Positions 1,905-64,000 are shown, counted from the first letter of the stretch. The stretch is 64,000 bases of DNA from Candidatus Omnitrophota bacterium (GCA_043808095.1 JAZDFF010000015.1:2015-66014); one strand, 5' to 3'. The notes: generated from the letters alone by a model not told the origin. Program-made: numbers and translations.

Positions 1905-1953
1905 ATCTTTATGGGTTTAAAAAACTATTTTTTAGCACAAATTCTCACGAATC

Positions 1954-17024: not shown

Positions 17025-17240
17025 TTGTAAATTCCTTTATCCAACTAATTTTTAGTATCGGATGCATACGGATTTTAGCGCCTGCCTGCCGGCAGGCAGG
17101 GATTCGGGCGGATAAATTCTTATCCGCGACATCCGTAACCATCCGTTTGAATCCGTGATAAAACATTTGAGTTATTAACTGGTCTGATGTATTTTCATAA
17201 GGTTGTTCGGTTAACCCCCAATATGCTTCATACATATTTA
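17025..17240. repeat. ~215-bp leader repeat (copy A): RBS + palindrome cctgcctgccggcaggcagg (17081..17100) + duplicated first ~20 codons of the ATPase gene (MYEAYWGLTEQPYENTSDQ)
   Basis: Near-identical to 19958..20172. The fragment ATG sits 2 nt after the Wzc stop codon. Confidence 0.7.
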
Positions 17241-19133: not shown

Positions 19134-19141
19134 ATCTTATC

Positions 19142-19957: not shown

Positions 19958-20172
19958 CTACAAATTCCTTTATTCAACTTATTTTTAGTATCGGATGCAT
20001 ACGGATTTTAGCGCCTGCCTGCCGGCAGGCAGGGATTCAAGCGGATAAAATAACTTAATCGCGACATCCGTAGCCATCCGTTTGCATCCGTGATAAATAA
20101 CCCTTTAGTTATTAACTGGTGAGAGGTATTCTCAAAAGGCTTCTCAGTCAGGCCCCAATATTGTTCATACAT
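19958..20172. repeat. ~215-bp leader repeat (copy B) with palindrome at 20014..20033 and duplicated gene-start fragment (MYEQYWGLTEKPFENTSHQ)
   Basis: Aligns with 17025..17240 along its whole length. Differences in the coding-like part are mostly synonymous. Confidence 0.7.
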
Positions 20173-43842: not shown

Positions 43843-45238
43843 TATGTATCCCCTTTCTGGTTATGCGTAAGCGCGTTTTATCCTCTATTGACCAACGCAG
43901 ATACCTAATAAGATTCTCCCACTTAGGTGCCCCCACCTGCATCAATTCATCGGCCCATCGCCGGAGTTGACTCCGGCTCCTTTCGGCAGTATAGTAGGGC
44001 TGGGGTAAATCCGTCAGCCAATATTCGTCATTAATCATTCTTTTGGTCTTAGCTAATTCATATAAGGCGGTCCCTGGAAAAACCATGGTTAGTTGAACTG
44101 CGCGAAAATCTGGCTTCAACCTTTCCAAAAGCCGAACCGTCTCGGAAATAGTCTCCTCAGATTCGTTAGGATTTCCAACCATCAAAAGGATTTTAGTCTT
44201 TATACCAGCTTCCCTAGTCAACTCGAAGGCATTTAAGATTTGGCCCACTGTTGTCTTTTTGTTTATAGTATCTAAGATAGTGGCAGAAGCAGATTCTACG
44301 CCGTAGGCAATAGAAAAACATCCAGCTTGCTTCATCCATCCTAACATCTCCGCAGATACAAAATCGACATGGGTCTCGCAGTCCCAAATAAGGTCTAACT
44401 TCCTTGATAATATTCCTTTGCAAATTTCAATTACCCTGTTTTGATCAACGGTGAAGGTATCATCTCCAAAATTGATATAGCCGCAACTGTATTTTTTAGA
44501 TAAAATCTCTAAATCGTCGATGACTTTTCGAGCCGATTGTTTTCGCCATTTACAACCCCAGAAAATATTGGTCGAACAGAATTGGCATCTATTAATGCAG
44601 CCTCGTGAAGTGACTACCGTAGCAAACCTTAACTTTTCAAGTCTTTTACCCCGGTAGTTGATTCCTCTAAGAATGCCATATCTTTGATATCTATCTAAAT
44701 CAAATAAATGATAGGCTGCGGGAGGAAGTAAATCTAAATCTTCTATCAACTCCACATCTTCATTCTTTATAACCTCTTGATCTTCTTTAAAAGCTATGCC
44801 TTTAATTTCTGCAAGCGAAATTCCCTTCTCCCAAGCGCGAATTAAATTTAAAAAAGTCCTCTCTCCTTCACCTAATACTACTACGTCTACAGGTAAATTT
44901 TTTAATATTTGCTTATACATAAAGAAAGGGTGTACTCCCCCTAAAACAACCTTGATAGCAGGATTTATCTCTTTTATAATACGGCTCAAGCGATAAACAC
45001 TAGCCCTCCGTTCGGTCAAACAGGTGATACCTACAACCTGAGGACTCTTTTCTTCAATAATTCTTCTTACCTTGTTCCATTGGCAGAATAGAAGATCTGC
45101 TACCTCAATGTCAAAACCTTCTCGTAATAAGACCGCAGCCAGAGAGGCAATACCAAGGGGCGGAGTATAGGAAGGCATAGAAGGCTTATCGTACCTACTC
45201 GTATTAAATTCAGGAGGATTAACTAATAATATTTTCAC
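43829..45238 (-). CDS. B12-binding-domain radical SAM protein (class B rSAM, probable methyltransferase or rearrangement enzyme)
   Basis: 469 aa. N-terminal cobalamin-binding Rossmann-like domain and an rSAM core with RGCINRCQFCS (CxxxCxxC). Confidence 0.75.
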   Translation of the reverse strand: MKILLVNPPEFNTSRYDKPSMPSYTPPLGIASLAAVLLREGFDIEVADLLFCQWNKVRRIIEEKSPQVVGITCLTERRASVYRLSRIIKEINPAIKVVLGGVHPFFMYKQILKNLPVDVVVLGEGERTFLNLIRAWEKGISLAEIKGIAFKEDQEVIKNEDVELIEDLDLLPPAAYHLFDLDRYQRYGILRGINYRGKRLEKLRFATVVTSRGCINRCQFCSTNIFWGCKWRKQSARKVIDDLEILSKKYSCGYINFGDDTFTVDQNRVIEICKGILSRKLDLIWDCETHVDFVSAEMLGWMKQAGCFSIAYGVESASATILDTINKKTTVGQILNAFELTREAGIKTKILLMVGNPNESEETISETVRLLERLKPDFRAVQLTMVFPGTALYELAKTKRMINDEYWLTDLPQPYYTAERSRSQLRRWADELMQVGAPKWENLIRYLRWSIEDKTRLRITRKGIHIVSP

Positions 45239-51788: not shown

Positions 51789-53726
51789 TTAAGTATCGGT
51801 GAGTCTCTTACCCGAATCTTCAGAGTCTTCACTGGAATAATAGTATTTATATTTATAATGATAATATGGATAATAGCTGCTTTGGATTTCTGTCTCGGGC
51901 TGGGTATGATTTAAGACCACGCCTAACATCTTTGCACCCGCCGACTCTAGTTGTACCTTTGTGCGTAAAAGTGCTGCCCTGGCAGTACGGCCAACCTCAT
52001 AGACTAAAACCACCCCGTCTAACTTTGGCGAAAGAATTACTGCATCGCTGATAGATAGGGCAGGAGGAGAGTCAAAAAGCACCAGATCAAAATCGCTTTT
52101 TAGTTCCCTAATTATATCGGACATTACAGTAGAACCTAATAGTTCGGCCGGGTTAAGAGGAATATGGCCCGAACTTAAAATCTTCAGATTATCCAATCCG
52201 GGCGTCTTTAGCGCCTCGCTAATGTCAACCTTGCCAACTAAGATATCAGATAGGCCCCTTAGCGCCTCCTTTAATTTTAATGTTCCCGAGATGACTTCCG
52301 ATAAACCGGGATCGCGCTCTACTCCAAATACCCTTGCTATCGTAGGTCTCCTTAAGTCCGTATCTACGATAACTACCTTTGTGCCCATTTGAGCAAAGAT
52401 AAGACCTAGACTCACCAAGACAGTGGTTTTTCCTTCCCTAGGACCGGTGGAGGAAAAAAGTATTGTCTTTTGACTAGGGTTTATCTTAAGATTAGTTCTT
52501 AAGATACGGTAGGCCTCAGAAACCGGAAGATGAGGATGGTATTGAACAGTTAAACAAGTGGCAGAGAAATCTAATGTCTGGCTTGTTTCTTTTTTCCTAA
52601 ATCTTAAACTAAAAAAATGCCCTTTCTGTCTCTTTTTTAAATTCTCCCTCTCTTGTAATCTTACGGAAGGAATAATTCCCAATACAGGCAAGTTTATAAG
52701 TTTTTCTACATCTTCGATTGTGCCGATAGAGGTATCTAAACTTTCTGTCACAAAGGTAAAAATTAGTCCAAGCATAATTCCCATCAAAGAACCCACAATT
52801 AAATTTAGGCCTTTATTTGGCTTAATAGGATAAGATGGTTCGATAGCCTGATTTATAGGCGTAACATCCGGGGTTTTTTCAGCCTCAGCAATACGGGAGG
52901 CTTCAAATTTTTCTCTGAGCATCCTGTATGTCTGTTCATTTATTTCCTTATCTCGATTTAGACGTGCATATTCAAGTTCACTGGCAGGCAAAGTCTTGTT
53001 CTGTTCTTCTAATTGACTAATCTCTTCTCTAAGCCGGATTATCTGAGGATGTTTTTCGGTAGCCTTGGTAAGGAGTTCGCTGGCCCGGCCTTTTAATTCT
53101 ACCAATCTTCTTTCGAGTTCAATGGCTACTCCTGTAACGGACTCTCTCTCTTTAAAGGCCTTTAATTTCTCTTCTGCCTGATTCAGCTCCTTCTCTACTG
53201 CAGCAAGCCTCTCTTGGACAAATTGGCGGGTCTCTGTTGCCTCTCTGCGTTTCTGGTTCAAATTTTCATCTATATAGACCTGCACAGCCATATTGGCAAT
53301 ACGGGTTATCTTTTTCGGGTCACTACCAGTTACAGATATATTAATTATATTGGTATCCTTTAGCTTCTCAGCAAAGATGCTTCCCTGAATATCGCTAATA
53401 ACTGCCTTTTTTTCATTATCAGACATTTTCTCATCAACAAAACCCAGCCTTTTAGCCGCCTTTTCTGCAACTTTACGGCTCTGAATGACATTTATCTCGG
53501 TATCTAAAGGGTTTCCCGGTCGAAAGTACATCTCCTCCACAAGGGCACCAATTACGGTCTTTTTTTGTTCATACCTTACGGTTGCAGAGGTCTGAAATAC
53601 GACGGGCTGCATCTTTGTATAAAATACTGTCAATACAAGCGAAATAAGAAAAGCGGAGCCAATGAGAATCCTTCTTTTTCGAAATATCCTAAGATAATCC
53701 TGGAAATTTAATTCGTATTGGGGCAT
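51789..53726 (-). CDS. Polysaccharide co-polymerase / BY-kinase (Wzc-like), paralog of 17238..19133
   Basis: 645 aa. Identical N-terminus MPQYELNFQDYLRI, P-loop FSSTGPREGKTTVL and C-terminal Tyr cluster YYPYYHYKYKYYY. Confidence 0.8.
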   Translation of the reverse strand: MPQYELNFQDYLRIFRKRRILIGSAFLISLVLTVFYTKMQPVVFQTSATVRYEQKKTVIGALVEEMYFRPGNPLDTEINVIQSRKVAEKAAKRLGFVDEKMSDNEKKAVISDIQGSIFAEKLKDTNIINISVTGSDPKKITRIANMAVQVYIDENLNQKRREATETRQFVQERLAAVEKELNQAEEKLKAFKERESVTGVAIELERRLVELKGRASELLTKATEKHPQIIRLREEISQLEEQNKTLPASELEYARLNRDKEINEQTYRMLREKFEASRIAEAEKTPDVTPINQAIEPSYPIKPNKGLNLIVGSLMGIMLGLIFTFVTESLDTSIGTIEDVEKLINLPVLGIIPSVRLQERENLKKRQKGHFFSLRFRKKETSQTLDFSATCLTVQYHPHLPVSEAYRILRTNLKINPSQKTILFSSTGPREGKTTVLVSLGLIFAQMGTKVVIVDTDLRRPTIARVFGVERDPGLSEVISGTLKLKEALRGLSDILVGKVDISEALKTPGLDNLKILSSGHIPLNPAELLGSTVMSDIIRELKSDFDLVLFDSPPALSISDAVILSPKLDGVVLVYEVGRTARAALLRTKVQLESAGAKMLGVVLNHTQPETEIQSSYYPYYHYKYKYYYSSEDSEDSGKRLTDT

Positions 53727-53738
53727 ATTGGAATGGTA

Positions 53739-54773
53739 TTAAAATCCCAAAGTCTGAAGCTGGGTCGCAACAGAGGAGGCTTTGTATATAGGATCGATTA
53801 GTTGTGTAAGGAAGTAATTTAGATTAGCAATAAATTTTTTAGGCACATAGATTATGTCTTCGGGCTGGGTTAAAAGGTCACTACTCACCTGGCCTTTATC
53901 AATGGCCCTGGTTAGATTAACACGTCGTATCTCTGGATTAAATGGGGCCCCTCGGATAATAATTACGCTATTTAAAACTGCATGCTCAGAAAAACCGCCG
54001 GCTAAGGCAATCGCCTCTAAGATATTGGCTATACCTGTTGGCTTGTATACACCGGGATTTTTTACTTCACCCAAGACAATGATCTTTTTGCCTCCTATCT
54101 GTTTTAATGATATGGAAACTTTGGGGGATGAGAGCAAATCTTTTAATTTTTCTGTTAAAGTACCGGAAAGTTCATTAAGGCTGAGGCCCTCGGCTTGAAC
54201 ATCGCCTAATAGGGGAAGGCTTATTTTACCATCGGGACGCACCATTAATTCTTTGGATAAATCCTCAACTTTTTCAAATCCCACCCTTCTTTTACCAAAT
54301 TCCTGTACCATTACCGAAACCTCAGGCGACTTAATAAACTCCTTAAGTTTTTCTGTTAAAATCCCGTCTAATTCGGTTAAGGTAAGGCCCTCTGCATAGA
54401 TATCATCTACGAGAGGAAAAGAAATCTTGCCGTCTGGCCGGACAATCACAATCTTGGCTAAATCTGGCCACTGCCAGACAGATATATCTAAGACATCTCC
54501 GGTTGAAATAGTATATTCATTTTCAGGCCCCTTTTCTTTTGCCTTCTCCAATCGACCAAACCCCTGCCAGACACCAACCTCTAAAATATCCTCCGGGCCA
54601 ATTTTATATTCGAAAGGTTTAGGCTGTTCTTCCTGAGACTGAGACAATTCTGTTTCTATCTTCTTAATCTCGGATTCAATCTCGGACTCTAAGACGGGAT
54701 TAGCAGTAACGCAGCCTAAAAATGATAGGGCAAAAATTATTAAAAGACAGGATTTATATTTATTTTTATACAT
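53739..54773 (-). CDS. Polysaccharide export outer-membrane lipoprotein (Wza/Poly_export + SLBB family)
   Basis: 344 aa. Lipobox LSFLGC, Poly_export motif YKIGPEDILEVGVWQ and two SLBB-like repeats (VRPDGKISFPL / VRPDGKISLPL). Confidence 0.75.
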   Translation of the reverse strand: MYKNKYKSCLLIIFALSFLGCVTANPVLESEIESEIKKIETELSQSQEEQPKPFEYKIGPEDILEVGVWQGFGRLEKAKEKGPENEYTISTGDVLDISVWQWPDLAKIVIVRPDGKISFPLVDDIYAEGLTLTELDGILTEKLKEFIKSPEVSVMVQEFGKRRVGFEKVEDLSKELMVRPDGKISLPLLGDVQAEGLSLNELSGTLTEKLKDLLSSPKVSISLKQIGGKKIIVLGEVKNPGVYKPTGIANILEAIALAGGFSEHAVLNSVIIIRGAPFNPEIRRVNLTRAIDKGQVSSDLLTQPEDIIYVPKKFIANLNYFLTQLIDPIYKASSVATQLQTLGF

Positions 54774-54857
54774 TATTTATTTAACTATAATATACACAAT
54801 CACTTAGGCCCTGTCAAGCAAAATGAAATTCAAAATACGACGAGCCTTAGTGAGCAA

Positions 54858-55670
54858 TTAGGTAAAGCTTTCTATCTCATCTTTTATGATTATTTCATCA
54901 ACAACAGAGGCCTTTTCTATAAATCCGGTTAAAAGACCAAGATCGCAGATACGGTTAATCCTGCGCGGTATACCTCCAGAGAAATCAAAAATAGTTTTTA
55001 ATGCTTCTTCTGTAAAAATTGGAGCGTCTCTTCTACTTACTTTAAGTCGATGAAGAACGTAGTTCTTTGTCTCTTCTTGGTTTAAGGCGTTTAAATAACA
55101 TTTTATCGCTATCCTTTGTTCAAAAGGTTTATTGTCTTCGATCTTTTGCCTCAATTCTGGCTGGCCGAATAACAACAGGGTTAAAAGAAATCTATTCTGT
55201 TGGTGAAAGTTTAAAAGAAGCCTCAATTCATTAAAAACCTGGTCATCCTGAATGATATGCGCCTCATCAACAATAATCACGGTATCTTTACCTTCCCGGT
55301 AATTTGCCATGAGGATATTTTCTAAAACCTCGTGTAGATAATCCGTAGAGATTTCTGTTTTTTTAGTGGGCAGTTCTATCTCTTTTAAGTTCCTTACAAT
55401 TGCCCTAAGTAGATCGACATACTCCAATTGGGGATTGGTAATGGATGCTACTTGGTAATGCTCTTTCTTGAGTTCATCAAAGATAGCCTCGGCCAAAACA
55501 GTCTTTCCGCAACCAAAAATTCCGGTTAGCATAGCTGCCCCCACTCGTTCCTTAATAGCATAAAGCATGCGCGATAAGGCCTCTTGGTGCTGATTAGAAT
55601 AGTAAAGAAAACGCGGGTCAGGGGTATTTTGAAATGGCTTCTGATTTAGGCCCCAATATTCTTCGTACAT
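54858..55670 (-). CDS. ExeA/GspA-like AAA ATPase (EPS-locus type)
   Basis: 270 aa. MYEEYWGLNQKPFQNTPDPRFLYY, GIFGCGKT and IIVDEAH. Confidence 0.75.
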   Translation of the reverse strand: MYEEYWGLNQKPFQNTPDPRFLYYSNQHQEALSRMLYAIKERVGAAMLTGIFGCGKTVLAEAIFDELKKEHYQVASITNPQLEYVDLLRAIVRNLKEIELPTKKTEISTDYLHEVLENILMANYREGKDTVIIVDEAHIIQDDQVFNELRLLLNFHQQNRFLLTLLLFGQPELRQKIEDNKPFEQRIAIKCYLNALNQEETKNYVLHRLKVSRRDAPIFTEEALKTIFDFSGGIPRRINRICDLGLLTGFIEKASVVDEIIIKDEIESFT

Positions 55671-55744
55671 ATTATTTTAACTTACTCACTTACTCATTAT
55701 AATAAAGATTAACGAAATTGTCGAATAAAACAATCATTTAGATT

Positions 55745-56539
55745 CTATTCAAAACCTTTTATCTCTTCTTGAACAATATCATCGTCTATAAGGTCAAACT
55801 TTTTGATAAATCCTGCCAAGAGGCACATATCGCATAGACGGTTAATTCTACGTGGTATACCGCCAGAATAATTGTAGATTGAACGAAGGGCTCTTTCAGA
55901 AAAAATCGCGGCTGTGCGATTGGCAACCTGCAAGCGGTGAACAATATATTTTATGGAATCTTCCGGGGTTAAGCCGTCTAAATGGGCCTTTACATTAATC
56001 CTCTGCTCTAATTGTATATTCTCTTCAATTTTCTGCTTTAATTCTGGCTGGCCCAAAAGCAATAATGTTAAAAGAAATCTGTCTTGCAGTTGAAAATTTA
56101 AAAGCAGCCTTATTTCTTCAAAGACATTCTCGTCATTTATGGCGTGTGCCTCATCAATAATAACTACGGTTTGTTTACCGTTTCGCATATTGTTTAATAA
56201 CGCGTCATTAAGAATGTTCAAAACATCTGCTTTTCTTAGGGGGGCAGGATTGCCTAATTGATAAAGAATCATCCTTAAAAGCTCGATATCATCGAGCTTG
56301 GGATTAGCTATAAAGGCAGTTTTATACTGCTCGCTGCTGAGTTCCTTTAATACTGCTTGAGCAAGCATAGTCTTACCACAGCCAAATACACCCGTAAGCA
56401 TAGCTGCGCCCATCTTCTCTCTTACGGTATAGATAAGACGCATTAATGATTCCTCGTGTTGACTTGAACGATAAAGAAAACGCGGGTCAGGGGTATTTTG
56501 AAATGGCTTCTGATTTAGGCCCCAATATGCTTCGTACAT
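55745..56539 (-). CDS. ExeA/GspA-like AAA ATPase (EPS-locus type)
   Basis: 264 aa. MYEAYWGLNQKPFQNTPDPRFLY, GVFGCGKT and VIIDEAH. Confidence 0.75.
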   Translation of the reverse strand: MYEAYWGLNQKPFQNTPDPRFLYRSSQHEESLMRLIYTVREKMGAAMLTGVFGCGKTMLAQAVLKELSSEQYKTAFIANPKLDDIELLRMILYQLGNPAPLRKADVLNILNDALLNNMRNGKQTVVIIDEAHAINDENVFEEIRLLLNFQLQDRFLLTLLLLGQPELKQKIEENIQLEQRINVKAHLDGLTPEDSIKYIVHRLQVANRTAAIFSERALRSIYNYSGGIPRRINRLCDMCLLAGFIKKFDLIDDDIVQEEIKGFE

Positions 56540-56675
56540 AGTTTAAAAGACTGCTGAAAAATACTTTTTAACGCGAATAATCGCTAATCTAACGCGAATT
56601 CTCGCTAATTCTATTTGCGAAAACTAGCGTTTGATTCGCGTAAATTAGCATTTAAACCATTATTCAACACTCCCT

Positions 56676-57581
56676 TTGACAATAAACCCTAACCCTGCTA
56701 TTATAAGCTCAATGATGGATTTATCTATTATCATCGTCAATTATAATGCCAAAGATGTTTTAAGTCAATGTCTAAATTCAATTTACGACAATACCAAAGA
56801 CGTTGATTTCCAGATAACTGTTATTGACAATGCTTCAGGAGATGGCAGTCCGCAAATAATAAGGCAAAGATTCCCTCGCGTAAAATTAATCCAAAATAAT
56901 GTAAATTCGGGCCTGACCCAAGCGCAAAACCAGGGTTTAAAGCTGGCACAAGGTAAATATCTTCTGCTCCTGAATAACGACACCTACTTACAACCTCAAG
57001 CCATAAATAAACTGATAGAATTTATGGACCAAAACCCCGACGGAGGGATTGCCGGGCCAAGAATTTATACTAATGCAAATATACAAATTTCATTTGCCTG
57101 GATGCCGAAAAATCCCCATTTATTTCTGCCCTATATTTTGTTCAAGAAGCTGTTTCTAAATTACGAATTGAGAAGGCATAACTACAATCTAAATAACAAC
57201 CTAGAGGTAGACTATGTTTCAGGCGCTTGTCTAATGATACGCAAGACAATTATGGAAAATATTGGCTATATGGACGAGGGCTATTTTGTCTATAACGAAG
57301 ATGATGACTTATGCCTGCGCGTAAGACAAAAAGGTTATAAGATTTATTACCTACCTGAAGCAAAAGTGATTCATCTGCGAGGAAAAGGCGGCGGTGGGTT
57401 ACACCCCTACAGGATGATCCTTGAAATTCATAAGGGGATATTTAGACTGTATAGAAAATTTTATCCTAAGCCAAATTTTCTTCTGGACACTCTTATTTTG
57501 GGGATGTTAACACTTAGGCTGGGGTTAGCGATTATTATTCAATCCGTACGCTCTCTCAAGAGACTGTTTTTCCGTTCCTAG
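56676..57581 (+). CDS. Glycosyltransferase family 2
   Basis: 301 aa. LSIIIVNYNAKDVL...LLNNDT (DxD-like) in a GT-A fold. The only plus-strand gene in the right half. Confidence 0.75.
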   Translation: MTINPNPAIISSMMDLSIIIVNYNAKDVLSQCLNSIYDNTKDVDFQITVIDNASGDGSPQIIRQRFPRVKLIQNNVNSGLTQAQNQGLKLAQGKYLLLLNNDTYLQPQAINKLIEFMDQNPDGGIAGPRIYTNANIQISFAWMPKNPHLFLPYILFKKLFLNYELRRHNYNLNNNLEVDYVSGACLMIRKTIMENIGYMDEGYFVYNEDDDLCLRVRQKGYKIYYLPEAKVIHLRGKGGGGLHPYRMILEIHKGIFRLYRKFYPKPNFLLDTLILGMLTLRLGLAIIIQSVRSLKRLFFRS

Positions 57582-58710
57582 ATAAATTCAAAAAAATTTT
57601 AAAAGGCCGCAGGATATAACTGATATATGCCTTTAAATAAGATTTCGCAGGATAACGATATCTGAGTAATCCCTTATCCGGAAAAATATTGCTAATGAGC
57701 AATTTAATCAGGCTACCTGTTGTATCAAACATCAGGAATTGAACAAGATAGCTGACCTTGCCTAAATCTTCTTCCTGCCAGATATAGTCTTTTTTTAGAA
57801 TGCGGGAAATGACTTTCTTTTTTAACTTAGAGGGTGAGAATTTTTGTATAATTTCACCCTCTATCGGCGCACCTAAGATATCTTTACAATAACTCAGGCA
57901 ATAATAAATCATATTCTTTGTTCCCGATTCATTGGCGGTCTTTAATAATTTATCCCACGAAATGCTCTCTTTATAGACCTCAAGTATTCTTTTGATATCA
58001 TACAGCCAGATAATATTTTCGAAAAAATGAATCATGGTTAAATGCAAGGACAAATACAGGATATTATCTTCGACTGATAAACCCAGACAATCTAGACCTT
58101 CAATCTTAAAATTTACTGCTCGTCTGTAAAACATAATTTCGTCGATATTCAAAACTCTATTAAATTTATTATGTAGAACTTGCCAATGTATTTCTATAAG
58201 CAACTTGGCCGATAAAGTAAGACTGTCATCCCCATTTCGGCTATAAATGATAGAACCGAAGTCCCGTGTACTTATTTTATAACCCAGCCCTTCAAGACAT
58301 TTTTCAGTAATATCCAATTGCCCCGGCAATATCAGTATATCAATATCAATCATTGGCCTTAAACCGGGATTGTCCCCGTATACGCTATTTATAAGAGCTG
58401 TCCCTTTTAGAATAATTGACCTTATGCCTAATTTGTCTAGCGCCTTGAGTATTTTTGCCAATTCTCTAAGCGCAAGGGTATTTTGGGTTAGGACGCAATA
58501 ATAGTTGTTTTCGAGATCTTTCCTGATTAAATCAGGGACCGAAAGAAGCAAATTTGCCTTTTTTAAATTATAAAAGATAACAGTAGCTATGCCTTTCTTC
58601 TTAGCCAATCCCACAAGATAAGACCAATCTTCGTCTTTAACATTAGCTAAGGTATCTGGGTTTATTTTGCCGTTTAAAAGTTCTAAGATGATTTTTTTGG
58701 GAAGGTCCAT
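57556..58710 (-). CDS. Nucleotidyltransferase-family protein (PF14907-like)
   Basis: 384 aa. Helical N-terminal region followed by a GTALINSVYGDNPGLRPMIDIDILI (G...D.D) nucleotidyltransferase-fold motif. Assigned by pattern memory only. Confidence 0.45.
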   Translation of the reverse strand: MDLPKKIILELLNGKINPDTLANVKDEDWSYLVGLAKKKGIATVIFYNLKKANLLLSVPDLIRKDLENNYYCVLTQNTLALRELAKILKALDKLGIRSIILKGTALINSVYGDNPGLRPMIDIDILILPGQLDITEKCLEGLGYKISTRDFGSIIYSRNGDDSLTLSAKLLIEIHWQVLHNKFNRVLNIDEIMFYRRAVNFKIEGLDCLGLSVEDNILYLSLHLTMIHFFENIIWLYDIKRILEVYKESISWDKLLKTANESGTKNMIYYCLSYCKDILGAPIEGEIIQKFSPSKLKKKVISRILKKDYIWQEEDLGKVSYLVQFLMFDTTGSLIKLLISNIFPDKGLLRYRYPAKSYLKAYISYILRPFKIFLNLSRNGKTVS

Positions 58711-58765
58711 TTATGGGATGATTTTAATAAACCTGAAAAGGCATTTTAAACGCTAATTTTCGCGA

Positions 58766-58781
58766 ATCTAACGCTAATATT
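58766..58781. promoter_or_regulatory. 16-bp perfect palindrome AATATTCGCGAATATT within a CGCGAAT-word promoter-region repeat
   Basis: Read directly. Lies upstream of the nucleotidyltransferase-like gene start (58710). The same region carries GAATCTAACGCTAAT, which is also present at 9216..9230. Confidence 0.5.
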
Positions 58782-58851
58782 CGCGAATATTCACTCTATT
58801 ATTAGCGTAAATTCGCGTTTGATTAGCGAGAATTCGCGTTCAAGAAGGTTT

Positions 58852-60600
58852 TTAGAGATCTCTTTGTAATTTTGCAAATTCTAAGTTTTTATATTCTAAC
58901 GAGTCGAGGAATTCTTTAGTGCTACTTATTATAATTTCATTCTGGCTTTTTAAGAAATAAACCCGATCAACAAAATTTAACATACTTAACCGATGCGAAA
59001 TAATTATGCAGGTAAGATTTTTTCTTTTGCCTAACAACTCTTCCAGTATCCTTGTCTCTGAGCTGACATCTAATGAAGAAAGTGCTTCATCAAGGATAAG
59101 TATGGCCGGCTTTTTGATGACCGCCCTGGCAATAGCAATACGTTGCTTCTGGCCTTCAGAAAGTAGAGTAGCATTCTCTCCTATCTTAGTATCATATTTC
59201 TGAGGCAATTCATTAATAAAACTATCGATACCGGTTAATTGTGCCACGCTCATTATTTCATCTTGCGTTGCATTCGGTTTTCCATATTTAATATTGTTTT
59301 CAACTGTATCGTTCCACAAAAATGGCTCCTGGAGGGCAATTCCAATCTGCTCGTAGAGCGCCTCAAACTTTATTTTTTCTAGATTATTGCCGTCAATAAA
59401 AATCTCGCCATTCTGTGGCTCAAATAACCTTAAAATTAGATTTATGATAGTGGTCTTACCGCATCCAGATGGCCCGATAAGGGCAATATGAGTCCCTGGC
59501 TCTATCCTAAAATTCATATTTTCCAGGATAGGCTTTTTATCGCCGTAGGCAAATCTAACCTCTTTAAAGACAATCTCGCCTTTAGTAAACTTAACCAGCG
59601 AGGCATCGGGACTTGCCTTTATCTGCGGCTCTTGACTTAAGATCTCATCTATCCTTGAACAAGAAAGTGTCCCCATAGCTACTTGCTGGAAAAAGTTGGC
59701 AAATCGTGATTGCAGGCCAAATAGTTGGTTGATATAAAGCATTATGGCGGTCAGGCTGCCGAAAGTTAGCCGGCCTTTAATCACCCAGTATCCTCCATAG
59801 AAAAAGATTATTCCGCTAACCAGGCGGGACATAACATTACCGCTAAAACTACTCATCGCCCCTAACTTCGTAGTCTTTTTGGATAATTTTAGATTAATGA
59901 TTAGTTGTCTTAAATAGGCCCTGAATTCATTTATCTCTTTTCCAAAAGCCTTGACTAACTGGATATGCGAAAAGACCTCAGCCAGGCGTTCGTATATGTC
60001 TTGAGAATTTTTAAAGAGTTCCTCATAGAGGGTTTTTAGCCTCTGCATAAAATAATAAGGCACAAAATATAAAAATGGAATCAAAAATAAAGATAATAGA
60101 GCGAGTTGCCTGTCCAGATAAAAGATAATTGCGAAGATAAACAAGGTGCGCGGCAAGATGGTTAAAATCTCTGAGAGCGATGAAGTAATAAAACTAATTA
60201 CCCTGTCTATATCATAACTAATCCTGTAGATATGCCCTCCGGTAGATTTTTCCTGGAAGAAGGAAAAGGAAAGTTTAGTTAAATGACCAAAGACCTTTTT
60301 ATGTAAGTCGAATCTTAACTTTAAATTCAGATAACTGCTAAGGTAGGTGGTTGCGGCATTGAGCAGTCCCGTCAATATAAACAATCCGCCCATGGATAAG
60401 CCGATAATGATAAAAAAGGTCGGGTCTTTGGCTAAGAGACCTTTATCAATAAGCAATTTGCTTAAATACGGGTTCGCCAGGCCAAAGACAACAGCTACTT
60501 CCCCTAAGACAATTACCAGAAGTTCTGTCTTCCAGTAAGGTAAGAGGAACTTGGCAAATTTTAGAAAAAGCCTGAGATCTTCTTTTTTAAGTTGCTGCAT
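58852..60600 (-). CDS. ABC exporter, fused permease/ATP-binding protein
   Basis: 582 aa. 6-TM exporter domain, Walker A GPSGCGKTT, signature LSEGQKQRIAIARA and Walker B ILILDEALS. No C39 peptidase domain. Confidence 0.8.
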   Translation of the reverse strand: MQQLKKEDLRLFLKFAKFLLPYWKTELLVIVLGEVAVVFGLANPYLSKLLIDKGLLAKDPTFFIIIGLSMGGLFILTGLLNAATTYLSSYLNLKLRFDLHKKVFGHLTKLSFSFFQEKSTGGHIYRISYDIDRVISFITSSLSEILTILPRTLFIFAIIFYLDRQLALLSLFLIPFLYFVPYYFMQRLKTLYEELFKNSQDIYERLAEVFSHIQLVKAFGKEINEFRAYLRQLIINLKLSKKTTKLGAMSSFSGNVMSRLVSGIIFFYGGYWVIKGRLTFGSLTAIMLYINQLFGLQSRFANFFQQVAMGTLSCSRIDEILSQEPQIKASPDASLVKFTKGEIVFKEVRFAYGDKKPILENMNFRIEPGTHIALIGPSGCGKTTIINLILRLFEPQNGEIFIDGNNLEKIKFEALYEQIGIALQEPFLWNDTVENNIKYGKPNATQDEIMSVAQLTGIDSFINELPQKYDTKIGENATLLSEGQKQRIAIARAVIKKPAILILDEALSSLDVSSETRILEELLGKRKNLTCIIISHRLSMLNFVDRVYFLKSQNEIIISSTKEFLDSLEYKNLEFAKLQRDL

Positions 60601-60697
60601 TTCGTCTATTTTATTAACGGATGCATACGCCTACCAACAAGGCAGACAGGGATTTCTGCGAATTCGCTTGTTTGACTATCTGATAAAGTTAAAGGGC

Positions 60698-60937
60698 TTA
60701 AGAAGATGCAAAGCCTGAGAACGTGGACTCGCCGTAATCACCGCGTGCCGCAGTGTCTACTCCGTACTTCCCCTTGATCAGTAAATCGCCCTGACACAAC
60801 GTCCTCAGCGAACTTAGCGCGAACACGCCTTCGACTATGAATCCGACCCCTGTATAGCACTGGCAGCTCAACACTGCCTGCTCAGGGTTAAGTTTTACCC
60901 GGGTGATTTCGGGTCTGAATTTAGGTCGTCTGGACAT
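60698..60937 (-). CDS. Small GC-rich ORF (79 aa, Cys-containing) of unknown function; candidate precursor peptide or small protein
   Basis: Strong SD GGAGGTGA 4 nt upstream of ATG (MSRRPKFRPEITRVKLNPEQAVLSCQCYTGVG...). Local GC ~50% versus ~35% in neighbours. Sits between the GxxExxY/rSAM-SPASM genes and the ABC exporter. Confidence 0.4.
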   Translation of the reverse strand: MSRRPKFRPEITRVKLNPEQAVLSCQCYTGVGFIVEGVFALSSLRTLCQGDLLIKGKYGVDTAARGDYGESTFSGFASS

Positions 60938-61027
60938 TGGTTCACCTCCATTTTTGAACACAAATTTTCACGAATTAATATACGAAAATTCTAAGATTTA
61001 TCGAATTTACACGAATAATTTTTGTTT

Positions 61028-61402
61028 TCAAAAGATGTGTCGTTTTATTTCTATTTTGTCTGACCCAAGGTTAACTAAGTAACCTAACTTATATTCAGAA
61101 CCCTTTAGATAATGATAAAGTTGTAACTCAAAAACTTTAGGCATATGCAAAACCGATTTCAACTCGACAACAATCTTATCCTCTATAATAAAATCGGGTT
61201 CATAAAAGCCAACTTCTTTACCTTCGTATTCAACCTTTAACCTTCTCTTTGAATTATATCTTATCTTTTGCTTATCAAACTCTATTTTTAACGCTTTATG
61301 ATAAATCTCTTCTTTATGTCCCGGTCCGAGTGTATTATAAACTTTATAAAAACAACCAACTAACTTGTACGATAATTCCTTATATAGTATTTTCTCGGGC
61401 AT
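61028..61402 (-). CDS. GxxExxY family protein (PD-(D/E)XK-like), paralog of 13502..13924
   Basis: 124 aa with signature LGPGHKEEIYHKAL. Confidence 0.7.
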   Translation of the reverse strand: MPEKILYKELSYKLVGCFYKVYNTLGPGHKEEIYHKALKIEFDKQKIRYNSKRRLKVEYEGKEVGFYEPDFIIEDKIVVELKSVLHMPKVFELQLYHYLKGSEYKLGYLVNLGSDKIEIKRHIF

Positions 61403-61469
61403 ATATTCGTGTTAATTCGGCTTTTTATTCGTGTTAATTCGTGTCCAGATTCGTATTCATTCGAAAAAA

Positions 61470-62543
61470 TTAGTGAATATTCGTGCTTAAATGCGCCAAC
61501 TCGCAAAACCACTCCACCGGTTTCTCTAAACTGCCGGTTTCAAGATACGCTCTTCCAGGACAACTGAAACACATCTTTCTCAGGGAACAACTGCTACACC
61601 TTCCATTACTAGATGATCTCTGTATCCATACCCAGTCTAAAATCTGTTTTTGGGCCTCCTTGACTTCTTCTTTTAGCAAATTTATCTTCGGTTTTCTGAT
61701 ACAACTGCAAGGAAAGATATTGCCATAGGGATCGATGCTGATGCCATCGCCTCCTCCTATGGCACAACGGAACAACTTGGTATTTGGCCTGGGGTTTTTA
61801 TCATAAAGCCTGCGACCTGTTCCATCAGTTAATTTTTCACAATCCTCATCTCGTAACTTTTTTCTTCCATCCAAACTAAAAACCTCTTCTGGCTTTATGC
61901 GCAAATCACAGGGTGTTAACTCCTGGTTTAAACGGGCATGGATATAAGGACTGGGACGAAATTTTATCCCCAAATTCCTTATGAATCTTTTTACCTTTGG
62001 CATCTGGCCCAAATTCTCATTTATCACCATGGTCTTAATCTTGAGAGGAATATTTCGCTTCTTTATCATCTTTATACCTTCAATCGCCTTTTTAAATGAG
62101 CCTCTAACCTGTGTAATCTGCTCATAGACATTTTTTGTTATCGCATTTAGAGTAATTTCAATGACAAAGGGAGGCGATTTTGCTAAATAGTCGGCTATTT
62201 CTCTAGTCATAGAAAAGCCATTAGTAAAGATAGTGATGATAAAACCCTTATCTTTTGCGTAAGAGTAGATTTCTAAAAAGTCTTTTCTGGTCAAAGGGTC
62301 GCCTCCGGTAAAACAAAGCCAGATAATCCCATAATCTCTTACCTTATCCAACAAAGATTTTACCTGGCCAGTGGTCAGCTCCTTTTTTAAATATCGGGGT
62401 TTATTGTAACAATCACAGTAGCAATAGTTACAATGGAGCCCGCAGCCGAAGGTCAATTCAAACTGGCAGACATTGATGCGCTTTATGCGCCAATTAATCT
62501 TATGCGTCTTGAGACTAAAGTTCTTATACCGGATTTCTCTCAT
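61470..62543 (-). CDS. Radical SAM / SPASM-domain maturase-like protein
   Basis: 357 aa. CGLHCNYCYCDC (CxxxCxxC) and C-terminal SPASM Cys cluster CSSCSLRKMCFSCPGRAY. Confidence 0.75.
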   Translation of the reverse strand: MREIRYKNFSLKTHKINWRIKRINVCQFELTFGCGLHCNYCYCDCYNKPRYLKKELTTGQVKSLLDKVRDYGIIWLCFTGGDPLTRKDFLEIYSYAKDKGFIITIFTNGFSMTREIADYLAKSPPFVIEITLNAITKNVYEQITQVRGSFKKAIEGIKMIKKRNIPLKIKTMVINENLGQMPKVKRFIRNLGIKFRPSPYIHARLNQELTPCDLRIKPEEVFSLDGRKKLRDEDCEKLTDGTGRRLYDKNPRPNTKLFRCAIGGGDGISIDPYGNIFPCSCIRKPKINLLKEEVKEAQKQILDWVWIQRSSSNGRCSSCSLRKMCFSCPGRAYLETGSLEKPVEWFCELAHLSTNIH

Positions 62544-62579
62544 TTTGTATCGCTATAAATCATAGGTTAAGAATTTACC

Positions 62580-62900
62580 CTTAGCATTTTAAATTTACCC
62601 GCCTTCGCAGAAAGCTACGACCGTAAGGCCATAGATGAATGCCAAGCGGGTAATCCGCCGAAGTCCGTCTTCGCTCAATTGCTTTCGCATTGAGCTTCGC
62701 CGAGATCCCGCCGAAGTCAAACACGTTAAGCGTTTGACGTAGGCGGACCAAAAACGAAAGTATTTTGGCGAAGGCGGATACTGCTTCGGCGGGTTTCGCC
62801 GAAGTTCTCCTTCGCTCTTTGAGCTTCGGAGAAATCTTGCCGAAGCCTTGGCGTAGGCAGACATGTGAAGATGCTATGGCCGTTAGGCCATAGAGCTTCA
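62580..62900. repeat. GC-rich degenerate tandem-repeat / stem-loop element (family copy 2) bounded by inverted ggccatag words
   Basis: Internal ~40-50-bp degenerate repeats (ccgccgaagtc...cttcgctc...agcttcg..gagat). Hairpin gtcaaac-acgttaagc-gtttgac. Shares cttcgc / agcttcgg / gcgaaggcgga words with 7080..7320. The ORFs called inside it (106 and 89 aa) look spurious. Confidence 0.45.
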
Positions 62901-64000
62901 CTAAATATCTTTAATCTCTAAAGCATGTTTTTTAAATAATTTTTCTCTATCTTCTTTTATGAGAGATAAAATACTGCCGGGAACGATGGAATGATCATAT
63001 TTTTTATATAGATATTGGGCAAGACTTAACCAAGAATTAGCGAGTTTTGCCAAAATTACCATAATTTTAATGCTACCATTCTCTATCTTTTTTATTTTAT
63101 CAAAAGATAGCCCTTGTTCCTCTGTCACTTTTAACCAACTTTCTAATATTCCTGTGGGGGATATATCCAAATCTTTGACTATGCCATAAAACGATTCCTT
63201 AAATAACCCGCGGTTTATGAGGATGCTGACGGTCTGTTCTAATTTCATAGTCTTTTTTAAATCTTTAGCTGAATAAGTATCACTTTTATACGCATAATAA
63301 GGAGGATTTCTATCGTATCTGATTTTAAACCGTGCTGCTAATGGACGCAGATTTGTTCCCGGTAACATCATAAGCCTTTCTATCTGAAAATTCGGCGGAC
63401 GCAACCTAAATAAAAAGTCTAAAGAGGTAGAGAATGTACGGTAATTATCCTGCGGTAGGCTCGCTATGAGCTGGATCTGATAAAATAGACGCTTTTTATT
63501 TAAGAGTAAAATATTATTTCTAAATAAACTGGGGCTGAAACTTCTGTTCATCAATTTTAATGCCTCTTTGTTAGTGGACTGGACCCCTATTTCGATAAAA
63601 TTTGCCCTGGCTTTATGCAATAGCTCTACCATTTGTCTATCCAATAATTCTGCCCTCAGTTCAACGTGTAACCTTGAATTTTTATTATGCCTTATGAAGA
63701 TTTTAAGAATCTCTTTTGCCCTTTTCCTATCAAAATTAAAGGTCGGGTCCATCAGATAAATAGTGCCAGGGTCTTTTTTAAGTATAAATTCAAATTCTTC
63801 CTCTATTCTTTCTAAGGAAAAATAACGTAAATTTTTAAAACCTTTATGATAATAGCAATAATTACATTTAAAGGCGCATCCTCTCATTGTCTCAACGGGA
63901 TATTCATCTTTTGGCACTATGTCTATTAACCTTTCTAAATACGGGGAAGGGATAATATTTAAATTAGATAAATCCTGCCCTTGTTTATTAAAAATTATTC
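62901..64000 (-). CDS. Radical SAM protein, probably B12-binding class (5'-truncated by the window edge)
   Basis: CAFKCNYC (CxxxCxxC) lies ~15 aa from the listed GTG start. The reading frame stays open upstream to position 64000 (…NKQGQDLSNLNIIPSPYLERLIDIVPKDEY…), so the N-terminal (B12-binding) domain is expected beyond the window. Confidence 0.6.
   Translation of the reverse strand, partial: IIFNKQGQDLSNLNIIPSPYLERLIDIVPKDEYPVETMRGCAFKCNYCYYHKGFKNLRYFSLERIEEEFEFILKKDPGTIYLMDPTFNFDRKRAKEILKIFIRHNKNSRLHVELRAELLDRQMVELLHKARANFIEIGVQSTNKEALKLMNRSFSPSLFRNNILLLNKKRLFYQIQLIASLPQDNYRTFSTSLDFLFRLRPPNFQIERLMMLPGTNLRPLAARFKIRYDRNPPYYAYKSDTYSAKDLKKTMKLEQTVSILINRGLFKESFYGIVKDLDISPTGILESWLKVTEEQGLSFDKIKKIENGSIKIMVILAKLANSWLSLAQYLYKKYDHSIVPGSILSLIKEDREKLFKKHALEIKDI

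Follow-up and report, generated by a model that had tools for sequence, protein, structure and literature searches.

The window, the whole 64,000-nt stretch of DNA analysed from a Candidatus Omnitrophota MAG, carries at its far end genes for a B12-binding radical SAM (rSAM) enzyme, an rSAM/SPASM enzyme (rSAM-C), a 79-aa peptide, an ABC half-transporter and an NTP_transf_5 nucleotidyltransferase-fold protein. Family and ORF searches of the window placed every gene of this module on the minus strand (Table 1), in agreement with a preliminary description of this DNA, in which the rSAM/SPASM gene, a small ORF and an ABC exporter gene were noted to share one orientation. Next to the module lie genes of an exopolysaccharide (EPS) locus.

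Table 1. Genes and sequence elements of the module and its neighbourhood, with the evidence for each
Feature	Coordinates	Strand	Evidence
Wzz/tyrosine-kinase	51789-53726	-	TIGR03007/TIGR01007
Wza-type exporter	53739-54773	-	TIGR03027, 183.1 bits vs cut-off 180
Two XrtA/PEP-CTERM-type ATPases	55745-56539, 54858-55670	-	NCBIfam TIGR03015
NTP_transf_5 nucleotidyltransferase-fold protein, 384 aa	57556-58710	-	PF14907, E 2.8e-51, 174.9 bits vs cut-off 31.2
Palindromic intergenic element with CGC(G/T)AAT words at 11-nt spacing, between ABC and NTP_transf_5	58746-58840	.	word count
ABC half-transporter, exporter type, 582 aa	58852-60600	-	PF00664 + PF00005
Precursor peptide gene, 79 aa	60698-60937	-	family, coding signature, RBS
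GxxExxY / PD-(D/E)XK_3 gene	61028-61402	-	TIGR04256, 118.5 bits vs cut-off 35; PF13366
Radical SAM/SPASM enzyme, type C paralogue, 357 aa	61470-62543	-	PF04055, SPASM Cys, orthology
GC-rich, hairpin-rich non-coding spacer between B12-rSAM and rSAM-C genes	62560-62900	-	folding energy
B12-binding radical SAM enzyme, C-terminal 365 of 519 residues	62901-64000 (window end)	-	PF02310 + PF04055

The small ORF starts with an ATG at 60937, and the sequence GGAGGTGA at 60949-60942, 4 nt upstream, bears out the strong RBS previously claimed for this Cys-containing ORF. The ORF is GC-rich (core 54.8%, flanks 36.9%) and is without annotation in the source GenBank record. The entropy at the three codon positions, determined for 53 genes encoding the identical motif VKLNPEQAVL, was 0.11, 0.00 and 1.22 bits, and because of this pattern the small ORF is a real coding gene under protein-level selection. 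In the encoded peptide, a leader of about residues 1-23 (MSRRPKFRPEITRVKLNPEQAVL) precedes a core that begins near SCQCY, includes Cys25, Cys27 and Cys48, and terminates with ...GFASS. No Pfam or NCBIfam family matched the peptide at E <= 0.01, in line with its reported lack of resemblance to known precursor families, and the motif NPEQAVL was not found in the collection of papers searched.

More than 120 homologues were detected by a word-indexed search, and a full HMM scan of cluster representatives (50% identity) placed at least 862 clusters in the family. The leader is common to all members (...KPKFxPxITRVKLNPEQAVLSCxC), LNPEQAVL..C.C being invariant in 206 distinct sequences. Outside the leader, the sequences are hypervariable except for a framework of three to four Cys and the C-terminal Ser, which is present in 197 of the 206 sequences (96%); among the peptides of the mapped loci, 59 of 60 end with Ser or Thr. 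The long cores comprise about 55-60 aa, the leader is without a double-glycine motif, and several precursor paralogues are present per locus or genome. In the 'SCC' subfamily, many precursor genes are dispersed over the genome, away from the enzymes. The 79-aa ORF is the gene of a new, large peptide-precursor family. The hypervariable cores and multiple paralogues together suggest peptides that act outside the cell and diversify, for example in antagonism, signalling or surface interaction, rather than a cofactor.

The rSAM-C protein matched PF04055 with 87.5 bits, and the Pfam SPASM model gave no match at E <= 0.01. Its CxxxCxxC motif (C34/C38/C41) and the SPASM residues C260, C279, C316, C319, C325, C328 and C347 were invariant in 26 of 26 orthologues, the former being the radical SAM cluster motif and the latter matching the seven-Cys pattern by which SPASM domains hold two auxiliary 4Fe-4S clusters. 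The best relative in PDB was the peptide thioether synthase SkfB (E 2.6e-14); by sequence, rSAM-C also resembles SPASM/twitch enzymes acting on sugars or cofactors, namely AhbD/NirJ (NCBIfam) and cytosylglucuronate decarboxylase (PDB). The B12-rSAM gene is partial as described, the window carrying residues 155-519 (the rSAM core with CAFKCNYC and the C-terminal part only) and the gene running about 460 nt beyond the window end. The encoded part is identical to P0332/MFH1201779.1, and the full-length protein carries both PF02310 and PF04055. Since orthologues with 43-49% identity are located inside cassettes L006, L083 and L084, it is an accessory member of the cassette, with a predicted role as a methyltransferase.

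For the ABC protein, only PF00664 and PF00005 were detected in Pfam and NCBIfam searches, with no C39 peptidase domain. The peptidase-containing NHLM, bacteriocin and HlyB models align to it only from about profile position 140-170 onwards, past the peptidase region, and the relationship to HlyB, MsbA and NHLP exporters stays below the cut-off of each. The NTP_transf_5 protein exceeded the PF14907 cut-off (Table 1), confirming its proposed family, and contains the KG...DIDIL catalytic motif, KGTAL...MIDIDIL being aligned with KGPVL...SKDVDLL of a lasso-cluster homologue. This homologue, encoded in a paeninodin-type lasso cluster, also belongs to PF14907 and shows 26% identity to the protein of the window (E 5e-15).

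Synteny was analysed using the Pfam-annotated contigs L001-L004, L083 and L084 and 77 GTDB loci mapped with tblastn. One shared cassette, in the order PqqD, precursor, rSAM-A, rSAM-B, ScmC-like, rSAM-C, optional second precursor, ABC and NTP_transf_5, was found in about 40 species-level loci, mostly of Omnitrophota, and is often followed by Wza-Wzz-ExeA. NTP_transf_5 directly follows ABC in L001, L020, L027, L039, L042, L051 and L077, and is located further downstream in L008, L035 and L037. Each cassette encodes three paralogous maturase-type rSAM/SPASM enzymes, and the enzyme of the window is orthologous to one of them: its identity to the enzymes of other cassettes is 50-57% for type C, 33-41% for type A and 29-31% for type B. 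Flanking genes were counted for 48 species-level loci carrying the same peptide subtype: PqqD was present within the flanks of 38 loci and the ScmC-like gene within those of 30; cassette-type rSAM/SPASM genes flanked the peptide in 37 loci, with three or more of them in 27. The ABC gene was present in 25, following rSAM-C or one of the precursor copies. PqqD and the rSAMs are the closest partners of the peptide, with ABC associated less tightly. The PqqD/RRE partner is a discrete protein, encoded directly 5' of the precursor in most mapped loci; in L024, L031 and L033, three loci of a single marine MAG, RRE and leader are connected through in-frame PqqD-precursor fusions.

Two observations had been named in advance as evidence against a RiPP (ribosomally synthesised, modified peptide) system, loss of the small ORF from relatives that retain the rSAM genes and affinity of the rSAM/SPASM enzyme to sugar- or cofactor-modifying enzymes. 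The small ORF was instead found to be conserved and syntenic, and rSAM-C to be an orthologue of the maturase-type paralogue, so that the RiPP reading is not refuted; together with the PqqD/RRE partner of the related cassettes, these comparative data support it. The GxxExxY gene, which had been counted among the module components, does not belong to the pathway. It occurs in few cassettes (the window, L002 and L083), at differing positions, and other cassettes have 23S_rRNA_IVP or PemK genes in its place, indicating a sporadic guest inserted in the cassette.

Among the cassette genes, B12-rSAM, rSAM-C, precursor, ABC and NTP_transf_5 lie in the window, and an HMM search did not detect PqqD, ScmC or rSAM-A/B within the 64 kb. 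The proteins MFH1201775 to MFH1201780 are consecutive on one 87,630-bp contig, the last being the ScmC-like protein P0288. From this accession order, the ScmC-like gene is indirectly placed as the probable next gene, just beyond coordinate 64000. With a probability of roughly 75%, we consider the module to be the distal half of a cassette for radical-SAM RiPPs, the products of which would undergo cross-linking and Ser tailoring.

The ScmC-like proteins matched the NCBIfam models HprK_rel_B, ScmC and hpr-ser, and PF27840.1 is assigned in precomputed Pfam data to P0288 as well as to almost every one of the 120 homologues listed. In their P-loop region (GKSGAGKST...NDD), the P-loop and DD are invariant. 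An AlphaFold model (pLDDT 79.7) matched PEPCK and HprK/P with low TM-scores of 0.2-0.47, and hhalign against a lasso-cluster kinase gave 90% probability for the catalytic core, the region to which the HprK similarity of ScmC is confined. The predicted fold of these proteins is of the HPr-kinase/PEPCK type.

Among known systems, the cassette resembles SynChlorMet (SCM) in having a PqqD-like chaperone, several PqqE-like SPASM enzymes and an ScmC protein. SCM is defined by models for ScmC, ScmD (PqqD-like) and the rSAM/SPASM enzymes ScmE and ScmF (NCBIfam TIGR04248-TIGR04251, Pfam PF27840). ScmD is the best NCBIfam match of the cassette PqqD, and the ScmC-like proteins including P0288 carry PF27840. 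The NCBIfam cut-offs were missed by a wide margin, however, by rSAM-C (ScmF 83.7 and ScmE 63.4, cut-off 400), by the ScmC-like proteins (20-26 against 125; P0288, 26.4) or by the cassette PqqD (ScmD 39-50.5 against 100). The Omnitrophota cassette encodes three rSAMs, against two in SCM, adds ABC, PF14907 and sometimes B12-rSAM or GT1, and has an identified precursor family; no precursor is known to have been assigned to SCM.

A second likeness is to the paeninodin and pseudomycoidin clusters, in which the HprK-type kinase PadeK/PsmK and the nucleotidyltransferase PsmN act on a C-terminal Ser. Lasso precursors receive a phosphate on their C-terminal Ser from an HprK homologue, and PsmN is needed for hexose addition to that Ser phosphate (PMC6993621, PMC8498205). 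Both kinds of cluster combine precursors that have a terminal Ser with an HprK-related P-loop protein, PqqD, an ABC exporter and a nucleotidyltransferase of the PF14907 type, to which PsmN may belong; in a Paenibacillus lasso cluster, a precursor with terminal Ser likewise occurs together with PF14907, PqqD and an HprK-like kinase. At the present locus the peptide ends with ...ASS, PF14907 is encoded in the window, and the ScmC-like gene is adjacent as judged from accession order. Identity as a lasso peptide cluster was nevertheless rejected, the cyclase and leader protease families being missing: neither an Asn_synthase cyclase nor a B2 transglutaminase protease was found by Pfam among the cassette genes of L001-L004, L083, L084 and the window module, whereas the Paenibacillus locus used for comparison has both a lasso cyclase and a transglutaminase-like protease. 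The cassette also differs in its core chemistry, which derives from SPASM rSAM enzymes, and in its kinase, only distantly related and matching over the catalytic core only.

Sactipeptide and ranthipeptide maturases (SkfB, AlbA, StsB and PapB) share with the cassette the SPASM enzymes, Cys-containing cores and, as predicted for the cassette, RRE-mediated leader recognition, and StsB, PapB and AlbA were among the NCBIfam matches of the cassette rSAMs, all below family cut-offs. They differ in that the cassette RRE is a separate protein instead of an N-terminal domain, three paralogous enzymes are encoded per cassette, and the cores are long, as given above. Prochlorosins are comparable in their invariant leader and hypervariable cores, and in the dispersal of precursor genes as in the 'SCC' subfamily, but depend on a lanthipeptide synthetase rather than rSAM enzymology, and their leader family is also unrelated.

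Based on these comparisons, the following pathway can be proposed. The discrete PqqD would bind the leader and present the core to the three SPASM enzymes, which would install cross-links, most likely Cys-derived thioethers in view of the conserved Cys framework, and the B12-rSAM may add a C-methyl group. The ScmC-like protein with the HPr-kinase/PEPCK fold would phosphorylate the C-terminal Ser of the precursor, and the PF14907 enzyme would then elaborate the Ser phosphate with a hexose or nucleotidyl group, as for paeninodin and pseudomycoidin. By this analogy, we infer that the terminal Ser may be phosphorylated and then glycosylated on top of rSAM cross-linking, although its conservation could reflect another role, for instance in export or proteolysis. 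The ABC half-transporter, without a peptidase domain to cleave the leader, would export the product. The recurrent location of the cassette beside Wza/Wzz/ExeA suggests co-regulation or functional coupling with EPS export.

The alternative that survives best, still an unlikely one, is a coupling between peptide and polysaccharide, the phosphorylated or glycosylated C-terminal Ser attaching or priming the Wza/Wzz EPS, or the peptide regulating the Wza/Wzz system; the module would then belong functionally to the EPS locus rather than form a natural-product cluster of its own. In the window and seven other loci (L001, L020, L027, L035, L039, L042 and L077), NTP_transf_5 directly precedes Wza/Wzz, frequently accompanied by an ExeA-type ATPase, although the species are divergent (34-51% ABC identity). 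A GT1 glycosyltransferase gene adjoins ScmC within cassettes L083 and L084, and PsmN-type enzymes lead to a sugar-phosphate-Ser linkage. However, no Wza/Wzz was detected within the 10-kb flanks of many cassettes, e.g., L003, L008, L013, L017 and L023, the cassette has its own ABC exporter, and hypervariable cores are unexpected for a mere primer. Somewhat less probable again is the full scheme in which ScmC phosphorylates the Ser, PF14907 activates or glycosylates it, and the peptide is joined to or primes the Wza/Wzz/ExeA exopolysaccharide, with NPEQAVL peptides as SynChlorMet-type substrates. If true, Omnitrophota nanobacteria would display a hypervariable peptide-capped polysaccharide on their surface, and SynChlorMet-type cassettes would gain, in the NPEQAVL peptides, the substrates they have long lacked.

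We consider it improbable that the product is an unmodified secreted mini-protein or bacteriocin, with the conserved N-terminus as ABC export signal and disulfides in place of rSAM cross-links. The precursor gene adjoins that of the exporter and the Cys framework could form disulfides, but the exporter without C39 peptidase, the leader without double-glycine motif and the closer association of the peptide with PqqD and the rSAMs than with ABC argue against it. Very improbable is the polysaccharide-tailoring alternative of the preliminary description, in which rSAM, B12-rSAM and nucleotidyltransferase act on EPS sugars and the small ORF is incidental. It can refer to the other rSAM and B12-rSAM genes of the EPS locus in the window (30357-31511, 40445-41509 and 43829-45238) and to the moderate match of rSAM-C to cytosylglucuronate decarboxylase; selection acts, however, on the peptide encoded by the small ORF, dozens of species combine this ORF with these enzymes and PqqD/RRE, PqqD-precursor fusions exist, and cassettes occur without EPS genes. 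This alternative thus fails as the main explanation, and what stands of it is the repeated location of Wza/Wzz/ExeA directly after the cassette in divergent species. A redox cofactor derived from a sacrificial peptide scaffold by PqqD and a PqqE-like rSAM, as for PQQ or mycofactocin, is the least credible reading: the enzyme families are the same (PqqD, SPASM rSAM), with MftC and PqqE among the NCBIfam matches, but cofactor precursors have invariant cores, and the present peptides differ in their hypervariable cores, in the several paralogues found per locus or genome, and in having an exporter dedicated to them.

Two non-coding elements lie between the genes of the module. The spacer between B12-rSAM and rSAM-C folds with an MFE of -145.5 kcal/mol against -102.1 +/- 5.2 for shuffled sequences (z = -8.35). 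It gave no match in Rfam, its ORFs matched no Pfam or NCBIfam family, and no similar sequence was found among 81 loci; it was rejected as a gene. A weak Rfam MIR403 match on both strands is accounted for by the hairpin of the CGC(G/T)AAT element. This element shows five matches against 0.03 expected, and further copies are located at 56567-56650 and about 9198-9240.

The window carries the distal half of a radical-SAM cassette that is conserved in Candidatus Omnitrophota. All of the module genes named in the preliminary description were confirmed on the minus strand, and its interpretation of them as a RiPP system is supported by the conserved cassette, the precursor family and the orthology of the radical SAM enzymes. 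Synteny was determined from contigs with precomputed Pfam annotation and from 77 species-representative loci fetched by the leader pattern, with the cassette proteins as queries. The recurrent order is PqqD, precursor, rSAM/SPASM-A, rSAM/SPASM-B, ScmC-like protein, rSAM/SPASM-C, in some loci a second precursor, ABC and NTP_transf_5, and a comparison of relatives, the check suggested earlier, placed this conserved cassette around the small ORF in dozens of loci. Among 48 unique loci with CxC-type peptides, many of them cut by contig ends, PqqD was present in 38, at least one cassette radical SAM enzyme in 37 and at least three in 27, the ScmC-like protein in 30, ABC in 25 and NTP_transf_5 in 16. 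HMM searches of the whole 64 kb detected no PqqD, ScmC-like protein or second precursor ORF. In NCBI, identical counterparts of the window proteins are encoded on a single Omnitrophota contig of 87,630 bp; accessions there run consecutively from MFH1201775 to MFH1201780, indicating that the ScmC-like gene lies directly past coordinate 64000. From the synteny, rSAM-A, rSAM-B and PqqD are expected further along the source contig. Gene content, orthology and the conserved features of the peptide are established, and from these we infer every step of the chemistry.

Positions of the features in the window and in comparison loci (handles beginning with L)
Feature	Sequence	Position	Strand	Remark
B12-binding radical SAM protein, C-terminal 365 residues	window	64000-62901	-	MFH1201779, 519 aa, PF02310 + PF04055
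GC-rich spacer, 340 nt	window	62900-62560	-	
Radical SAM/SPASM enzyme, 357 aa	window	62543-61470	-	MFH1201778, rSAM-C
GxxExxY / PD-(D/E)XK_3 gene	window	61402-61028	-	MFH1201777; guest-gene insertion
79-codon ORF (precursor)	window	60937-60698	-	GGAGGTGA upstream
ABC half-transporter, 582 aa	window	60600-58852	-	MFH1201776
PF14907 (NTP_transf_5) protein, 384 aa	window	58710-57556	-	MFH1201775
GT2 glycosyltransferase	window	56676-57581	+	converges with NTP_transf_5; 3' ends overlap by 26 nt
ScmC-family protein	source contig			MFH1201780, V1674_02690
Guest-gene insertion	L001	8510-8956		
Guest-gene insertion	L001	11425-11625		
Guest-gene insertion	L002	3878-4297		
Guest-gene insertion	L002	6228-6739		
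Guest-gene insertion	L083	20003-20419		
Second GxxExxY gene	window	near 13520-13855		
Polysaccharide-export module	window	15195-19957		
Polysaccharide-export module	window	51789-56539		
Upstream element	window	1941-1973		CCTGCCTGCCGGCAGGCAGG and TTTTAGTATCGGATGCATACG
Upstream element	window	17081-17113		
Upstream element	window	20014-20038		
Upstream element	window	60609-60660		
CGC(G/T)AAT element	window	9198-9240		
CGC(G/T)AAT element	window	56567-56650		
CGC(G/T)AAT element	window	58746-58840		
PqqD-precursor fusion	L024	from 7151	+	
PqqD-precursor fusion	L031	from 9509	+	
PqqD-precursor fusion	L033	from 8847	+	
Precursor under 54-aa ORF	L084	2010-2264		
NPEQAVLSCC subfamily	L054	8225-10280		
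NPEQAVLSCC subfamily	L065	36-5190		
NPEQAVLSCC subfamily	L070	1718-4760		
GT1 glycosyltransferase, 558 aa	L083	17333-19009		
GT1 glycosyltransferase, 558 aa	L084	7445-9121		
Lasso-type locus L086	NZ_CP054613.1	1032024-1044692		reverse complement

The 79-aa ORF gave no match in Pfam or NCBIfam, bearing out the initial impression that it resembles no known precursor family. The family to which it belongs is large and new to curated libraries. A word-indexed search returned more than 120 homologues of 60-135 aa, chiefly from Candidatus Omnitrophota MAGs, and 1.84 billion cluster representatives, scanned in full with an HMM, included 862 matches at E <= 1e-3, of which 654 reached E <= 1e-10. The consensus reads M-x-(R/K)-K-P-K-F-(K/R)-P-x-I-T-R-(V/I)-K-L-N-P-E-Q-A-V-L-(S/T/A)-C-x-C-(Y/F/W), in which L-N-P-E-Q-A-V-L and both Cys of the next CxC are 100% conserved in 206 distinct sequences. 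Downstream of it the peptides are hypervariable, with column identity averaging 21%, and the only conserved core residues are 3-4 Cys in a constant framework (C2-C3 spacing mostly 22-24, C3-C4 mostly 12-14). Small, polar residues make up the tail, whose last residue is Ser in 197 of the 206 sequences (96%); in the GTDB loci, Ser or Thr forms the C-terminus of 59 of 60 complete CxC-subtype peptides. For genes encoding an identical VKLNPEQAVL, nucleotide entropy was 0.11 bits at the first codon position, 0.00 at the second and 1.22 at the third, showing that selection acts on the protein and not on RNA, and on this pattern a spurious ORF is rejected. The reading as a cofactor precursor is rejected on the hypervariable cores. 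Core GC exceeded flank GC in 102 of 109 precursor genes, by 10 points on average; the GC-richness is a family trait and stems from cores rich in Ser, Gly, Thr, Cys and Ala.

The precursor has no accession in the source GenBank record, where the ABC and GxxExxY proteins on either side are numbered consecutively (MFH1201776 and MFH1201777) and the gene between them is thus unannotated. At another locus (L084), the gene caller placed a 54-aa ORF in a different frame over the precursor gene. Gene callers often miss this family of at least 862 clusters, which is absent from curated libraries. A second subfamily (L053-L081) has a leader with KLNPEQAVLSCC, of NPEQAVLSCC type, and shorter cores of about 36 residues, usually 4 Cys, and a C-terminal Ser in 45 of 47. 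The genomes concerned (MAGs STF1_137 and STB_176 and a Saganbacteria bin) each carry many copies, in tandem or dispersed, and mostly no cassette lies within 10 kb of them. The pairing of an invariant leader with hypervariable cores, and the dispersal of these copies often far from any cassette, resemble the prochlorosins; this pairing is a natural combinatorial library with an easy search handle. Bins labelled Elusimicrobia, Planctomycetales, Chloroflexota, Saganbacteria, WOR-3 and others likewise encode NPEQAVL peptides beside ScmC-like and radical SAM genes. The searched literature, coverage of which is incomplete, held no paper on the NPEQAVL family and nothing specific on SynChlorMet, PF14907/NTP_transf_5, Omnitrophota with SPASM/RiPP, or SPASM with HPr kinase.

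The radical SAM/SPASM enzyme of the window is the type-C paralogue, sharing 50-57% identity with type C of other cassettes, 33-41% with type A and 29-31% with type B. Its CxxxCxxC motif and all seven SPASM cysteines are invariant in 26 of 26 orthologues. SkfB, StsB, PapB and AlbA are among the nearest characterised relatives, all far under family cut-offs, and cofactor- and sugar-modifying SPASM/twitch enzymes gave similar scores. Cross-linking of the core is the probable task of the three SPASM enzymes; thioethers formed from Cys would be the most economical guess, given that 3-4 Cys are the sole conserved core residues and that the relatives include these four enzymes. The B12-binding radical SAM protein is a recurrent accessory of the cassette, with orthologues of 43-49% identity within the cassettes of L006, L083 and L084; a metagenome scan with it gave one distant match. 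PqqD-family proteins are established RiPP recognition elements (RREs), and the discrete PqqD of the cassette most likely binds the leader. In three loci of one marine Omnitrophota MAG (JAHJHM01), PqqD is fused in frame to an NPEQAVL precursor through Lys/Arg/Glu-rich low-complexity linkers, which connects the RRE with the leader. Fusion of a recognition element to the very peptide that is its substrate is uncommon. No radical SAM genes were found near these fusions. The ABC half-transporter, which has no peptidase domain, most likely exports the product, and the precursor leader has no double-glycine site. Candidates for the protease that removes the leader are a conserved 282-aa protein and the Peptidase_U32 of some cassettes.

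Among described architectures, the SynChlorMet cassette (ScmC/D/E/F) comes closest. The best match of the cassette PqqD is ScmD, and the HprK-like proteins carry Pfam PF27840. Every NCBIfam SCM score is far under cut-off, and the present cassette adds a third radical SAM enzyme, an ABC exporter and PF14907. It is a distant variant of SynChlorMet and not a member, and the NPEQAVL precursor family would provide SynChlorMet-like cassettes with a concrete substrate.

The ScmC-like proteins share an invariant GKSGxGKST...LNDDR core. They weakly match the HprK-related kinase B, ScmC and HPr(Ser) kinase models, and a sequence-profile search of the PDB gave HprK at E ~0.3. An AlphaFold model (pLDDT 79.7, pTM 0.81) had its best fold matches among ATP-dependent PEP carboxykinases and HPr kinase/phosphatases (E 6e-7 to 1e-4, with low TM-scores). 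Lasso clusters of the paeninodin type use an HprK homologue to phosphorylate the C-terminal Ser of the precursor on its side chain, and in pseudomycoidin the 'uncharacterized nucleotidyltransferase' PsmN is needed for placing 1-2 hexoses on the Ser phosphate (PMC6993621, PMC8498205). An unannotated locus of Paenibacillus cellulosilyticus (L086) encodes a PF14907 protein (E 1.7e-61), an Asn-synthase-type cyclase, a 64-aa ORF ending ...TVTIS, PqqD, a transglutaminase-like protease and an HprK-like protein with GESGAGKST...TDD; from this gene content it looks like a paeninodin/pseudomycoidin-type lasso cluster. Between the PF14907 protein of L086 and that of the window, identity is 26% over an alignment of 235 residues (E 5e-15) that takes in the catalytic KG...DxD region, and the L086 kinase matches the ScmC profile across the 40 columns of the catalytic core (hhalign probability 90%). 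Sugar-nucleotide genes lie upstream in L086. A PF14907 homologue on a Bacillus plasmid (H6) was discarded as a comparison, its genomic context being neither lasso nor RiPP.

Because of the lasso precedent, the homologies to L086 and the 96% conserved terminal Ser, phosphorylation of the C-terminal Ser followed by PF14907-dependent elaboration is the best-supported prediction for the ScmC-like and PF14907 genes. By gene content, a kinase/nucleotidyltransferase/terminal-Ser tailoring logic is common to the cassette, paeninodin and pseudomycoidin. The cassette has neither a cyclase nor a B2 protease and is not a lasso cluster. The predicted combination of multiple SPASM cross-links, B12-dependent methylation and C-terminal Ser phosphorylation or phosphoglycosylation on one peptide would be unusual, and to our knowledge the last of these is so far known solely from lasso peptides. 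In L083 and L084, two relatives that also have the B12-binding enzyme, the cassette gene just ahead of the ScmC-like one encodes a GT1 glycosyltransferase; its presence there fits a glycosylated end product.

The main alternative is a coupled peptide-EPS function of the cassette. Beyond the GT2 gene lie two XrtA/PEP-CTERM-type ATPases, a Wza-type exporter (above the TIGR03027 cut-off), a Wzz/tyrosine-kinase and a Wzy_C protein, and the order NTP_transf_5 then Wza/Wzz, with or without an ExeA-type ATPase, is found in the window and in L001, L020, L027, L035, L039, L042 and L077. Since the ABC proteins of these loci are only 34-51% identical, the recurrent linkage exceeds inertia among close relatives; it is missing in L003, L008, L013, L017 and L023. 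The link to EPS export is recurrent, not universal, and that it returns repeatedly in Omnitrophota may point to a role at the cell surface or in interactions. Bacteria of this phylum are ultra-small and possibly host-dependent, and no cultured model for such chemistry is known to us. The other possibility raised earlier, that the module is a mere sugar-tailoring extension of the polysaccharide locus, is rejected.

The GT2 gene looks like a local insertion, because NTP_transf_5 directly precedes Wza/Wzz in several other loci. The window has two polysaccharide-export modules, with four ExeA-like XrtA-type ATPase paralogues and two Wzz genes. The GxxExxY gene, counted as a module component in the preliminary description, is sporadic and variably placed across cassettes and is a guest gene. 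Small genes of this kind (GxxExxY/PDDEXK_3, 23S_rRNA_IVP, a DUF2281-PemK pair) lie between cassette genes at positions that differ by species and are probably selfish.

The minus-strand GC-rich spacer, 340-345 nt from 62560 to 62900 or 62905, folds as a series of stable hairpins (-145.5 kcal/mol; z = -8.35 relative to shuffled sequences) with repeated CTTCGGCG and CGCCGAAG words. It had no Rfam match and nothing similar in 81 loci; as a degenerate precursor or gene it was discarded, having no family match, precursor-HMM match or similar sequence elsewhere. Searched against Rfam, the module (at E <= 1) and the entire window (at the gathering threshold) gave only three tRNAs and a spurious MIR403 match on a palindrome, and neither GC-rich stretch of the module is a known RNA. 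An upstream element with the CCTGCCTGCCGGCAGGCAGG palindrome and TTTTAGTATCGGATGCATACG is repeated in the window, and a degenerate copy lies between the precursor and ABC genes. In three palindromic intergenic elements, CGC(G/T)AAT words are set at 11-nt spacing, several direct and then several inverted (5 pattern matches observed against 0.03 expected). These could be bidirectional terminators or protein-binding arrays; two of them flank the convergent GT2 / NTP_transf_5 pair.
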